NCBI GenBank assembly: GCA_039621445.1
Contig: CP154954.1
Coordinates: forward strand, 46,479,847-46,543,846
DNA from: Euglena gracilis
Lineage: Eukaryota
DNA length: 64,000 nucleotides
Direction of reading: 5' to 3'
This document shows, piece after piece, positions 45,501-51,500 of the stretch. Below the pieces are notes generated by a model. The model was not told where the DNA came from, made no database searches, and saw only the letters and a program-made list of their open reading frames with translations. Each line of letters starts with the position of its first letter. Position 1 is the first letter of the stretch. Position numbers and translations under genes: made by a program.

Positions 45501-48500
45501 GGTGCTATGGGGCTCCTGCCCCTAGCACCCCCCCCCGTGGGGTAGGCACCCGACTAAGCACAAGCCTGGGGGGGACCCTTCGGTGGTTCCCCTCAGCAAG
45601 GTTCCCCTGCCCCAAACGTCCAGGGGGGGGGGCCTGGGGTGAGAGCCCAATTATTTTTGTGTGCAATGGGCAGGCAGATTAAAACACTCTGCTTTGATGC
45701 ACCATAAAAAAAACAGATAGCCATATTCAAACTACGCACACCTCTGCAACTTCCTTCGGGTGCAATCGCTTGCCCCCATTGGGGGTCACTTCGCAGATCC
45801 AGGCATCAGTGATCTTGAAGGTGTCCTGCAGTTGCGCATTCAGTGCCAAGCACTGCTCTTCGGTGGCAAACCAGAAGCGATTCCGCCCTGCCTTCATTTC
45901 TGCGGTTGCGCCTGAAACACAAAGTTGGAACACACAAAATGATGCAAAGCAAATAAAACATAAACTGAAATAAATAAATAAAAATAATGCATAATAAATA
46001 AATAATAAAAACTGAAATCCCCCACCTCCTTAAACCATGTTTCGCCAAGAAAAACCAATGCCACCCCGTCTGTTTCTTCTCGAAACCCTCTGTGACAACT
46101 CGGGTGGAGGGGAGAGGGTCTACTGGTCCTTCCCATATAATTTTTTACCGACCCCCGGGGAGGAGAGGGGGGGGTCACTCCACTTTTTAAAAACCACTCA
46201 ATCACTCGTTTTCAAAAAAAACAGTCAGTCACTAACCCCTGGGGTCGGCCACTCAGAAAAACGGCCACTTTCCAGTCACTTTAAGCTATTTCAGGCCAAA
46301 AAAATTTTCCGGCGCCTTCGGCGCCGGGGTCACTCAAGCCACTTTTGCCCACTCCTGGCCCCCCCGGCCGGGGGAGGGGGAGGGGGTCCGGGCCAAAAAC
46401 CAGTCTCACTCTGAAAAAACCAATCACCCACCCCGGTCAGTGCTTAAGCAATTGCCTGGTCCTTTCTCAATCAAGTGTGAAGATATCTGTCAGAATTTGT
46501 CGAACACCCCCCTGAATTTTCTTCCAACACAATTCCAAACCAATCATAATCTGCACAGTCAGGGGATATCTTAAGCACCCGGGGGGGCGGGGGGTCCAGC
46601 CTCTGGCTGGAAAAAAAAGCCACTGACTGGACCCGCCGGTCGAGGGGATAGGGGGGGAGGACGGGGGGTGGGGGGGGGGTCCGGGGCTGGGCTGGGCTAA
46701 ATCGATGAAAAACAAAAAAAAAATTTCTAAAACATTTTGCCATCTCGACATTTTGATGGATGCAGCTAGATCAAACCTGGATTGGGACTAGAGGAACAGC
46801 AGAACAGGAGAAAACAAATGCAGGGATACGTGCACAGCGGGCAGCCCAGTTGGGCCCCGCTGGCCCGGCCTCTGGCTGGGCTGGACTCAACTTCATTTCA
46901 CTCCAGCCCCGGGGCCCTCCCCCCGGGGGAGGGGGTCCAAGACTAAAAAAAAAACCCTGCCCCTGATTCAATTACAACAAAATCAATTCTTTTAAGCAAA
47001 AAAATTTATTTCCACACCCCTCAAGGTGATTTTCTTCCCGGCTCATCCAAAGCAGGGAATTTCGAATGATCAAGCACATGTGCAAAACGAAAACACAAAT
47101 TGCTTGCCAAATAAAAATAAAAATCCCCGAAACACATCCAACGAATGCAGACCTTTTGATGAGGTTGTAAGAAACAAAAAATGTTTGAAAACAATATTTA
47201 TTTGGGACACAGACAAACAGGTCTACCGCAAAAATTCAATCCTCACTTTTTGGTTGCCTCGGCAGAGTCCTATCCACCCTCTCCACAAAAACTAAAATGA
47301 GGCCTACATATTTGCTCGACCCCTCCCCCACCCCCCGCAAAGCCCGATCACTCAACACCTGCCCCCCCCATCCACCATGGCACCCGCTCAAAGCAAAATT
47401 GCTTCGGTGCTACCTAAAAATCAATGAAATACAAGAAAACCTGGAGGGCAAAACCCCCCACCTACCAGAATGGGGGTGGAGGGGTTGAACCCCCATCAGA
47501 GTTGTTATTTTAGAACTGGGGGGGGGGGTCCTTACCATACCATTGCCTACCGTCCCCCCGCGTAGGTGCCCCCCCCGGGGAGGGATCACTTTCCACTTTC
47601 AAAAAAAAACCAGTCAGTCACTTTTCAAAACCAGTCACCCACTTCCTCCCCCCCAAGACAGGGGGGGGGGGTTGGTCACTTTGACACGTCAAAAGTCAAA
47701 AAAATTCTGGCACCTTTTGGCGCCGGGTGGCAACCAGGCTGTTTTTTACCAACCCCGGGGGGAGGGGGGGGGTCCGGAGTACCTGTGACTGCCTGCCCAG
47801 GCAGGCACTACCCTCCCCTGGGGGGGGGGGTCGGATTTCTGCCTGTGCCCGGGCACATTCCTTTGAAAATAGGCCATTTTTGGCTCCCCGGCGCCTTCGG
47901 CGCCGGGGTTGTGCTAGGGCACTTTTGGCTGTGTGCCCTACCCAGGCACATGCCTACCTATGCCTTGGCGTGCCTGCCCAGGCAGGCACCCCCCCCCCAG
48001 GGGGGGGGGCGGCACCCAACTAAAATACAGCATGCTGTCAACCACCTCGCGCGTGGGGCGGGGGTCTGGAGCCAAAGCCACTCAGCCAGTCAGTCACCCC
48101 CCCAGGGTGGTTCGGTCGGACACACTTTCCACAATGGCATAATCCGGACTCACCACCTGGGGGGGGGGGGGAGGGGGCGAAGTTATCCATGGTTATCCGT
48201 TTCAGGATAAGCACAGACCCCTGGATTCCCGTACAGCCCTGCCCCCCCCCCCCAAAACAAAACCAATTCTCACTTAATACCCTGAGGGATGCTGTCTTCC
48301 CAGACGCGAGGTCCAGAAAAGCCACACCCCGACACTTTGGGTGAATCTGTTAAAAAATGGGAGTGCTCCCAACCAAAGTCCATTCCAAGCACATAAAACT
48401 TGCACCACATCCTCCCAGGAATAAGAGCAAACATCATGGAGACGTTTGCCAGTGTGTCCTGGGGGGTGAGCGTGGGATATGCTTGCGCAGCTTTCCCTTG

Positions 48501-51500
48501 ACCTGTGGACCAAAATTCAATTAATCTCTCCCAACCAATCAACCACACCCCACACCCACCGCATCATGGGGGGTGCATCCATGCCAAAGGTCTCCATCCT
48601 CCTCCAAAATTTGAATACTCAAAAAAACCTTAATAAACGGGAAAAAATGCACATAAAGAATAATCTTTGTGTGTGGAAAATAGGAGCACTTCAGAAAATT
48701 TTGCAGGAACAGGTCCCCAGGAGAGGGGGGGGTGCAGCACGAACCCTTGGGGAAAAAAGAGGGGAAAATTCAAAAATGCGAAATCGAAAACAGCAGAGGA
48801 AACATCCACACACAAAAGGGTCGCAACTTACGGGGAAATCCAGCAAAACAGAAAACCAACATTTTTTTTAAAACTATGCGAAGGTTCAATCCCAAACGTT
48901 GGCTGTGTAAAAGGAAACTGTGGTGCCAAATATATTCTTGTTCCATCAAATCACGTGAAACCTTGCTGAGAATGGCCAGAAAGGCAAAGCTGACTGGCTG
49001 GAGACTCTTGCGCTTCCACCCTCGAAATGAGCATCCGATTCTTCACACACCTGTTGGAAGCGTGAGGGTTCCGTTAATGTTGCTGTCCCAGAAGATCACA
49101 AAATTGTTCTCGGCAACGGGTCCCAACTCCTTCCGGATTTCTTCATCATACTGCATGCGAATAAAAATGGATTCATTGATCTGTTTGAGGAGGCTGCTGC
49201 CAAGGATTCACTTTGCAGGGGGGAAATATGCGCTAAAGGCCCCCCCAATTATGTGCTAGCCTATGCGGGAATTGGCACTAATGCAGAAAAATATGCGGAA
49301 AATATGCGGAAAAATTTTTCCGAAACCGGGCCACATTTGGACATGTTGAAGTGACCCAAATGGCAAATCATTTCATGTGGAGTTTTTTGGGCCACAATCA
49401 GCTACTTTCGGATCATTTGAGACCGATTCTGACTACTTTTTGGCAATTTTGGGCCATTTTCAGCAAATTAGGATGATTTTGCCACTGGCAATGGCCCAAA
49501 TGACCAAAATTATACCTGATTGCCAAAAAAAAAAAGTAAACTGAAAAAGCCAACAGTAGCCAGAAATTACCCAACATGGCCGAACACTTCCCCGGAATTT
49601 CGCAGAATGGCCAAAAATTGGCAAAATTGCCGAAAATAGCCCCCAAAACAAAAACAAATGGCCTAAAGGATCAGAAGAAATTCAAAATGGTCCCCAATGA
49701 ATGCTGGCTGGACCCCCAGGAGCTGAGGTGGGGTCTGGCGTAAATTTCCTGACCCACCCACCCACCCCCTCTCTCCAGGCCAAGAGCCAGTGAAGAAAAA
49801 AAAACTGGTCCCCCCAGGGGGGGGGGCAGCCAATGAGCAAATGCTCGTATGTGCTGAACACAGACACGCACAACGCACACAACGCACATGCAATTGCATT
49901 TTTCACAGATTTTTAACTTTGTACAACTCACTTGAGTGGTGCAGTAAAAACCCAGGAATGGCTGGCATTGGCATCGGGGAAAAAACTGAAAGCAAACCTT
50001 GCTGTACTTTGCCAACTTCTCACCAGTCTCAGAAAACATGGCCACAGCACCCTGTGAGGAGATTGTGCAATCATATCAAAAGTGGCAAACATTGATCTGA
50101 GACCAGGCAATTGTTTATAAAGCACCCCAGGGGGCCACTGGCTGGCCATTTGCCAGACACTGGAAAAATTCTGAAGGAAAAAAACTGAACCGGGTCCCCC
50201 CCCGGGGGGGACCCGCCCCCCCCCCTCCCTGACTGGGGAAAAAAACTTTCCTCTGGCGCTGTGTATCAAGGTGGAAATGACACTTTTAATGCATTTTTGG
50301 CCTGATGTGTTCCAAAAAAAAACCCAAACACGGTAAAAGATGGGCACTTTTGGCAGAGGGGGGGGGGGGAATGCAACTTGGCCCTTCAAATTATGCAAGT
50401 AAAAAAAATGCAAAAAAATGCAAAAAAAATGCAACTTGCATGAAAACCTTGAGAAAAAGCTGGAATATGACAGAGCCTAAAATCAAAAAAAAAATCCGGG
50501 ACAAAATATTTTATGCAAAAAAACGAAAAAAAAATGCAAAAAAATACAACCATATGCCAACCAACTACAAAATCTTTTTCAAGGGCAAAATATTTTATGT
50601 AAAAAATGCAAAAAAATGCAAAAAAATCCAAACATACGGCAACCAACTACAAAATTTTATTCCAAGGCAAAATATTTTATGCAAAAAAATGCAAAAAATG
50701 CAAATTATGCAAGTTGCATTCCCCCCCCCTGCTTTTGGCCAGTTCTGGTTAGAGTGGGGGTCAGGCTTCTTTTTGACCAACCCAGGGGGGTGGCTTGTCC
50801 CATGGGGTGCCTGCCCAGAGCAGGCACACACCCGGGGGGGGGGGGTCGGTTTTGGACCCTTGTGCTTTTGGTGTCGGGGGTCTGCTGTCCACCCCAACCC
50901 CCCCCTCCTGCCGGGGGGGTTGAAAATGCCCCCGTCCCTGCCTGCCCCCGGGGGCAGGGGCGGGATGCGCACTTCCTGAAGAAGCCTGGTGGGAGTTCAC
51001 TTCAATCACACCTGGGCATGCCAAATTGCACATTGTTGTCCGGGACATCTCCTGATGCTTGAGTGAAAATACTAAGAGTGGCTTCTGACCATACAATTTT
51101 TTACCGACCCCCCCCCCCGGGGCTTCACTCCACTTTTTAAAAAAAACCAGTCAGTCACCCATTTTCGGAAAACCAGCCAGTCATTCCCCCCCCCTGGGGG
51201 GTCGGTCACCAGGGGGGAGGGAAAAATGCAACTTGGCCCTTCAAATTATGCAAGTCAAAAAAATGCAAAAAAATGCAAAAAAATGCAAAAAAAATGCAAA
51301 AAAATGCAACTTGCAAAAAAACCCTGAGAAAACCCTGAGAAAAGGCTGGAATGTAACAGAGTTGCTGCCAATAATCCATAGACATGTGATAATGCCGGTG
51401 TATACCTGTCAATGATTCACAAAGAAGACCTCCTGGAAGACAACGCAAGCACTGAGACCACAAAAACCCCAGGCAACTGCAGAGGGACCAGAGACAAAAC

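Follow-up and report, generated by a model that had tools for sequence, protein, structure and literature searches.

A truncated, fast-evolved PsaD repeat within the PsaD polyprotein of Euglena gracilis

Does an open and correctly spliced reading frame within a polyprotein gene mean that the segment it encodes has a function? The question is raised by a gene for PsaD, a subunit of photosystem I (PSI), in Euglena gracilis, whose PSI is described in the main texts of recent cryo-electron microscopy (cryo-EM) work as a minimal core of eight subunits that includes an unusual PsaD. The window analysed here, 64,000 nt of contig CP154954.1 (all coordinates are window positions), carries on its minus strand a PsaD polyprotein gene whose 5' end lies past base 64000. 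From 5' to 3' it contains normal PsaD unit A, normal unit B, a short and strongly diverged unit referred to here as the mini unit, normal unit C and a stop. We find that the mini unit is a real, expressed and hitherto undescribed truncated, fast-evolved PsaD repeat within the polyprotein. Whether its product has a role is a separate matter; on balance we think it probable that the unit is a decaying remnant under relaxed constraint with no role of its own.

Exon structure and splicing of the mini unit

The mini unit (50051–45742, minus strand) is made of three exons of 54, 100 and 170 nt, a linker exon followed by M1 and M2, which add up to 324 nt or 108 codons (Table 1). All six exon borders are AG/GT, and there are no stops, frameshifts or broken splice sites. 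The outer exon borders are exactly the limits given in a preliminary description of this DNA, which had proposed a mini-PsaD with intact frame and splice sites between 45742 and 50051.

The gene model was derived from the joints seen by RNA sequencing (RNA-seq) between 41900 and 54900, together with homology to the sister units. The RNA evidence over this interval comes from one raw RNA-seq run (X21), for which joint counts are the sum of both mate directions, and from contigs of three other runs (X1, X5 and X9). The four joints of the mini unit have GT..AG ends on the minus strand, and in X1, X5 and X9 each of them is again found in one contig; over M1 and M2 these contigs show 0 differing letters. 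Through its joints to units B and C the mini unit is in frame with the other units on one mRNA. The preliminary description had considered that its exons might be skipped in cDNA, or that unnoticed exons might restore a full PsaD. Neither was found: the mini joints are carried by 318–613 raw reads, no joint skipping the unit occurs among the 15 listed of 92, and the RNA joints run directly from exon to exon. Since the listed joints resting on raw reads alone go down to 66 reads and none of them skips, a skipping form, if there is any, must be minor. Splicing thus includes the mini unit, constitutively and in frame, in the mRNA that carries the normal units. As its joints are read as often as those of unit B, the proposed co-production with normal PsaD at a fixed ratio stands at the level of the mRNA.

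A synonymous G>A change at 50040, in the linker exon of the mini unit, is present in about 60% of the raw RNA reads and also in contigs of X5 and X9, while that of X1 lacks it; this mixture implies at least two expressed alleles or copies that carry the mini unit. Peaks of RNA depth within the introns (44504–44937 and 47976–48409) were considered as extra exons and rejected, as they lie on G/C-run and GTGTGGGG low-complexity repeats and come with joints marked as 'opposite strand'. Similarly, GTGTGGGGGG-type arrays and long G/C runs in introns (44583–44830 and 48159–48177) draw RNA reads with 'opposite strand' and 'goes back' joints and poly-G/C loose ends, and these signals look like repeat or low-complexity artefacts rather than exons.

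On both sides the mini unit is flanked by a GAVAMF linker. The upstream linker has S in place of A, and the downstream one reads AVK where GEK is expected. The linker motif, VAMF.. followed by TGEK, is common to the PsaD and light-harvesting complex (LHC) polyproteins, and the decapeptide linker of the RBCS polyprotein, as given in the accessible part of one report (PMC4938576), is related to it. The suggestion that the unit is a PsaD derivative lying between two linkers on the same mRNA as normal PsaD is supported.

Comparison with the sister units shows what has been kept. When the mini linker exon is aligned with those of units B and C, its donor proves to be shifted 8 nt downstream relative to the normal linker exons, which are 46 nt long. 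The possibility that the linker exons of the mini unit and of unit C share an origin was considered and is unsupported, because the unit C exon aligns gaplessly with that of unit B. M1 is the counterpart of the 3' part of normal exon E1, without the KGSTGTLL segment, and by itself it has no Pfam match. M2 differs from normal exon E2 (188 nt) by three in-frame deletions of 2, 1 and 3 codons. The phase-1 intron after LPTG lies at a homologous position in the mini unit and in A, B and C, as had been proposed. The last donor of the mini unit corresponds to the E2 donor and is now joined to the next linker exon in phase 0. Of a normal unit, the mini unit thus retains the linker exon, a truncated E1 and E2, and it has lost two N-terminal-extension exons and two C-terminal exons. 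The frame would be shifted if either M1 (100 nt) or M2 (170 nt) were skipped by itself.

The introns of the mini unit were also compared with those of A, B and C in search of a neutral yardstick, and only dispersed repeats were found in common, with no collinear homology. These repeats are 100–380 bp long and 77–91% identical, and occur at non-collinear places in introns of several units (45255–45572 against 56512–56822, 46132–46458 against 40638–41015, and 51747–51874 against 40784–40911).

Family membership and divergence of the core

The open reading frame (ORF) that contains M2 matches the Pfam PsaD family PF02531 with E=2.9e-11 and 43.5 bits (cut-off 22.4) over profile positions 36–98 of 136, and M2 matches PsaD chains in the PDB with E values down to 2.2e-31. 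On a hidden Markov model (HMM) of PsaD that we built from 119 family members, the spliced mini unit scores 61.3 bits over positions 32–107, compared with 265–267 bits over positions 16/17–147/148 for units B and C. The central sheet–helix–hairpin core of the PsaD family and of Euglena PsaD (PDB 9vfj, 9vjs and 9uas, chain D), with its LPTG, AEM, EQCLAL, PNG and LHPK motifs, is thus also present in the mini unit, which in addition carries 6 of the 16 states by which the Euglena units depart from the family consensus.

What the mini unit lacks, in alignment with A, B and C, is the Euglena-specific N-terminal extension, the KGSTGTLL segment and everything past LHPK, that is, the VN...SIGEN...VKF arm. 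It does not make up a full PsaD domain, having neither the N-terminal GSTGG strand nor the C-terminal arm (VN..GR..IG.N..P..KF). ARKEQ has become ATEEQ (R to T and K to E). PsaD of Euglena differs from the mini unit in having the extension, GSTG, the arm and the RK of ARKEQ. This pattern of a retained core with lost ends, noted previously, is confirmed by the alignment and by the HMM range. PsaD lies on the stromal side of PSI next to PsaC, and its C-terminal arm wraps PsaC and anchors PsaD in PSI; literature searched on this PsaD 'clamp' yielded nothing useful, and the role of the arm is given here as general background. In the main texts of the E. gracilis PSI cryo-EM papers, the N-terminal extension touches antenna proteins. 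Over the core, 37 of 71 aligned residues are identical between the mini unit and unit B (52% amino-acid and 62% nucleotide identity). With its linker, the 108-residue mini unit computes to 12.1 kDa and an isoelectric point (pI) of 5.05, compared with a pI of 7.95 for unit B.

Over the same 74 codons, A, B and C differ from one another at 1–3 nonsynonymous sites, so that the concerted evolution seen among the sister units does not extend to the mini unit. In a tree of 31 core sequences, the terminal branch of the mini unit measures 3.24 changes per column against a median of 0.044. It falls on the side of A, B, C and the PsaD fragments P0012 and P0013 (see below) in a split, supported at 99/95, from unit 1 of the public precursor (see below) and cyanobacteria, a placement that is unsure given the long branch. 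The fraction of G or C at third codon positions (GC3) is 0.65 in the mini unit and 0.78–0.82 in the normal units.

Pairwise comparison of the mini core with A, B and C gives a nonsynonymous divergence (dN) of 0.44, a synonymous divergence (dS) of 1.0–1.26, which is near saturation, and a ratio omega of 0.35–0.43; among A, B and C themselves omega is 0.04–0.13. If nearly all of the amino-acid change is placed on the mini branch, omega on that branch would be roughly 0.5–0.9 and, with dS near saturation and 47 synonymous sites, it is indistinguishable from 1. The 34 replacements are as radical as in neutral simulations: their BLOSUM62 scores average −0.56 compared with −0.63 ± 0.27 under neutrality, and the observed value was reached in 0.415 of 2000 simulations. 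Of the near-invariant PsaD columns (at least 95% conserved), 15 of 38 are altered in the mini unit. The tests of constraint thus lean towards relaxation.

Searches for an orthologous unit gave no mini-like sequence. A word-indexed protein search with M2, limited to longer proteins, returned nothing, and neither did JGI metagenome contigs searched with M2 or with an 89-residue stretch of the euglenophyte fragment P0012 (linker, N-terminal extension and start of the core). A HMMER scan of 1.84 billion representatives gave 9 matches, none of them mini-like: the five sequences examined were four ordinary PsaD fragments and one unrelated repetitive protein, and the other four, judged from the match table only, were long proteins (1206 to 7509 residues) matching short stretches of the query. 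The collections searched seem to hold almost no euglenid data, and these blanks say little. Three metagenome or ENA sequences, P0012, P0013 and P0014, are PsaD fragments 87–94% identical to Euglena exon E2 and likely come from other euglenophytes. In P0012, which shares the linker, a normal unit is followed immediately by a terminal one, and P0014, from an 866-kb contig, reads through the intron after LPTG.

Decay, new role or fusion

The history we favour is the following. A PsaD repeat would have retained its linker exon, a shortened E1 and E2 while losing the two N-terminal-extension exons and the two exons of the C-terminal arm, and would then have ceased to evolve in concert with its neighbours, its identity falling to 52%. 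It would be translated once per four normal units and, if processed like its neighbours, be freed by cleavage at the VAMF-type linkers on either side, yielding an acidic polypeptide of ~98 residues (~11 kDa) in the stroma. This product would be unable to act as a PSI subunit, as it lacks the arm by which PsaD is held on PsaC and has TE in place of the RK of ARKEQ. The frame and splice sites of the mini unit would be kept by selection for unit C and not because the mini unit itself has a function: translation of unit C follows downstream in the same frame, so that stops, frameshifts and broken splice sites in the mini unit would be removed anyway, and neither M1 nor M2 can be skipped singly. 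For this reason the intactness of the frame and splice sites, remarked on previously in the face of heavy divergence, is no evidence of function.

Several observations weigh against decay. The signature residues V.I.W, LPTG, AEM, EQCLAL.AQL, PNG and LHPK survive, and 12 of 35 conserved degenerate codons are synonymously different from those of all of A, B and C; with synonymous differences beneath kept residues, the identity is not due to recent gene conversion and may reflect purifying selection. Residues are retained in 23 of 38 family-conserved columns against 14 of 33 variable ones, a non-significant trend (Fisher p=0.10). When all 81 nucleotide differences are put on the mini branch, a neutral simulation gives 46 ± 3 replacements, and 0 of 2000 runs had 34 or fewer; this simulation rests on an extreme assumption and shows that neutrality is not proven. 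The mini unit looks old (dS ~1), yet it has been neither deleted nor homogenised in an array whose other units are 96–99% alike. Finally, the VAMF core is kept in both flanking linkers, so that a discrete product is to be expected.

A rival reading is that of a neofunctionalised PsaD core, as the preliminary description proposed. The excised acidic polypeptide of ~98 residues would then persist in the stroma as a stable protein that has taken on a new role, present in one copy per four PsaD. Such a core could hold, occupy or chaperone PsaC, ferredoxin or a PSI assembly factor during the assembly of Euglena PSI without docking as a subunit. We regard this as possible and clearly less probable than decay. 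In its favour, the unit is expressed constitutively and in frame at the level of the normal units, its core motifs are kept over synonymous changes, conserved columns tend to be retained, both linkers are intact in their motifs, and it persists at dS ~1 in a homogenising array. The loss of whole exons has removed cleanly and precisely the parts that anchor PsaD in PSI, and the protein has become acidic. On the other side, none of the tests shows constraint: the pairwise omega of 0.35–0.43 is taken with dS near saturation and would be higher on the branch of the mini unit itself, the replacements are as radical as under neutrality, 15 of 38 near-invariant columns have changed, and the retention bias is non-significant. 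The open frame and splice sites are explained by unit C downstream. No orthologue was found in the searched collections, with their scarcity of euglenid data, and no such chain is reported in the main texts of the E. gracilis PSI structure papers. Free PsaD is, moreover, poorly structured in solution. The data thus give no support for calling the unit neofunctionalised.

Alternatively, the mini unit might never be released. It could remain attached to unit C, where it would form an additional N-terminal domain, or else to unit B, and a longer PsaD isoform would result. We consider this improbable. The linker exon of unit C does deviate (AVK for GEK) in the TGEK part that is common to the PsaD, LHC and RBCS linkers. 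Against fusion, the VAMF core is intact on both sides, the deposited or modelled Euglena PsaD chains are 186–203 residues long, and the main texts of the cryo-EM papers report no extended PsaD. Still less credible, to the point of being barely worth entertaining, is the idea of a dead pseudo-unit whose exons are skipped or hardly ever used and survive as a genomic relic only: the public precursor P0010 (PDB 9vfj chain D) does lack them, but the spliced raw reads at each mini joint are on a par with unit B, three further runs also yield spliced contigs and a skipping joint is absent from the 15 listed of 92.

Decay of an expressed repeat, the reading we prefer, has a close precedent. As far as the accessible part of the report goes (PMC4938576), the RBCS polyprotein of Euglena longa includes one strongly diverged unit that has three in-frame deletions and precedes a linker and a canonical unit, and this diverged unit was missed or mis-assembled in short-read transcriptomes; in all these respects it resembles the mini unit. 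The E. longa case differs in that the host is non-photosynthetic, so that the whole protein is under changed selection, and loss of whole terminal segments is not reported in that part of the paper. The mini PsaD unit, in contrast, lies in a photosynthetic host between strongly constrained neighbours and has lost whole exons. More generally, the gene resembles the precursors of other Euglena plastid polyproteins (RBCS, LHC, PGK and EF-Ts), which according to the main texts have several units per ORF behind one presequence, joined by short linkers of the AM(F/T)..GEK type. It is unlike them in that the main texts do not name PsaD among them, though 9vfj chain D holds three units, and in that the mini unit is out of concert with its neighbours.

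What follows depends on the fate of the product. A stable mini product would be a new actor in the stroma, supplied in fixed proportion to a subunit of PSI. An unstable one would make the unit a clear case of a dead repeat held open solely by its position in a polyprotein, and a caution against equating 'intact frame' with 'function' in polyprotein genes.

The precursor and the layout of the locus

The polyprotein from which E. gracilis makes its PsaD has at least five parts, and each such mRNA also encodes the truncated core. The public record gives a shorter precursor. The UniRef entry P0010 (E. gracilis, 698 aa) is the sequence of PDB 9vfj chain D. Exact matches in it are unit A (185 of 185 residues), B over its first 166 of 201 residues and C over its last 81 of 198. 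Its order is unit 1, unit A and then the first 166 residues of B joined to the tail of C, and none of the 8-residue words of the mini unit occurs in it. The switch from B to C falls within the near-identical exon E2 or at its end, and the tail of B, the mini unit and the head of C are omitted. At the locus, B and C are kept apart by the last two exons of B, the mini unit and the first exons of C. P0010, and with it 9vfj chain D, is thus probably a collapsed assembly of the kind that a short-read assembler makes of repeats, or else a rare splice form joining B-E2 to C-E3. The main texts of the E. gracilis PSI cryo-EM papers list eight core subunits with no extra PsaD-like chain, treat PsaD as one subunit and contain no mention that we found of a PsaD polyprotein. 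A full-text literature search on Euglena, polyprotein and PsaD, which did not extend to supplements such as Supplementary Fig. 12 of PMC13076659 that may bear on this, likewise found no paper describing a PsaD polyprotein.

The three normal PsaD units in the window were located by tblastn of candidate exons, and the repeated exons by all-against-all comparison of the minus-strand ORFs. The linker exon of unit A was not found within the window and is placed, with the presequence, unit 1 and all else upstream, past base 64000. The exon borders of unit C outside the read-covered interval were assigned by homology only; 336 raw reads continue from 42155 into the sequence of the next exon of unit C at 39581.

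Table 1 Features of the PsaD polyprotein gene, from 5' to 3', with splice joints and the raw reads (X21) that support them
Feature	Position	Strand	Remarks
Normal PsaD unit A	63491–57973	minus	five exons in window; 185 residues, all exact in P0010
Normal PsaD unit B	57741–52570	minus	7 exons, 603 nt, 201 codons; model from RNA joints
Unit B joints			E1/E2 451 reads; E2/E3 506 reads; E3/E4 456 reads
Joint, B last exon/mini linker exon	50050/52569	minus	426 reads
Intron, B last exon/mini linker exon	50052–52569	minus	GT-AG, 2518 nt; 426 reads
Mini linker exon	49998–50051	minus	54 nt, 18 codons; begins with GAVAMF linker motif
Joint, mini linker exon/M1	49150/49998	minus	496 reads
Intron, mini linker exon/M1	49151–49997	minus	GT-AG, 847 nt
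Mini exon M1	49051–49150	minus	100 nt; short acidic lead-in and first beta-strand region (..FVIFW..LPTG)
Joint, M1/M2	45910/49050	minus	613 reads
Intron, M1/M2	45912–49050	minus	GT-AG, 3139 nt, phase 1 after LPTG; contains dispersed repeats
Mini exon M2	45742–45911	minus	170 nt; homologous to normal exon E2
Joint, M2/unit C linker exon	42199/45741	minus	318 reads
Intron, M2/unit C linker exon	42201–45741	minus	GT-AG, 3541 nt; 318 reads; holds GTGTGGGGGG-type low-complexity array
Normal terminal PsaD unit C	42200–31886	minus	7 exons, 198 codons; TGA at 31885–31883
Linker exon of unit C	42155–42200	minus	46 nt; GAVAMFAET, then AVK where others have GEK

The normal units differ from one another in their introns. 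In unit B, a 79-nt intron without GT-AG ends (52639–52717) splits the codons for ..NPRS/IGEN.. and is supported by 456 spliced reads; an 8-nt repeat at both of its ends makes the exact cut ambiguous. Unit A has no intron at this site (57973–58083), and unit C has one of 633 nt (31946–32578), placed by homology. The non-conventional intron at this site is therefore subject to presence/absence variation among tandem repeats. In unit C, two N-terminal-extension exons are fused to one (39479–39581), where A and B have an intron of ~1.9 kb, and an extra intron without GT-AG ends, its borders drawn by homology only, lies inside exon E1 after GSTG (34472–34976).

An Rfam search of 30000–64000 gave no match at gathering scores. 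Downstream of the PsaD gene, two long minus-strand ORFs (18616–21652) match the reverse transcriptase family RVT_1 with E=8.9e-12 and 1.8e-06 and, together with further long ORFs without Pfam matches up to ~27000, they are probably a retroelement.

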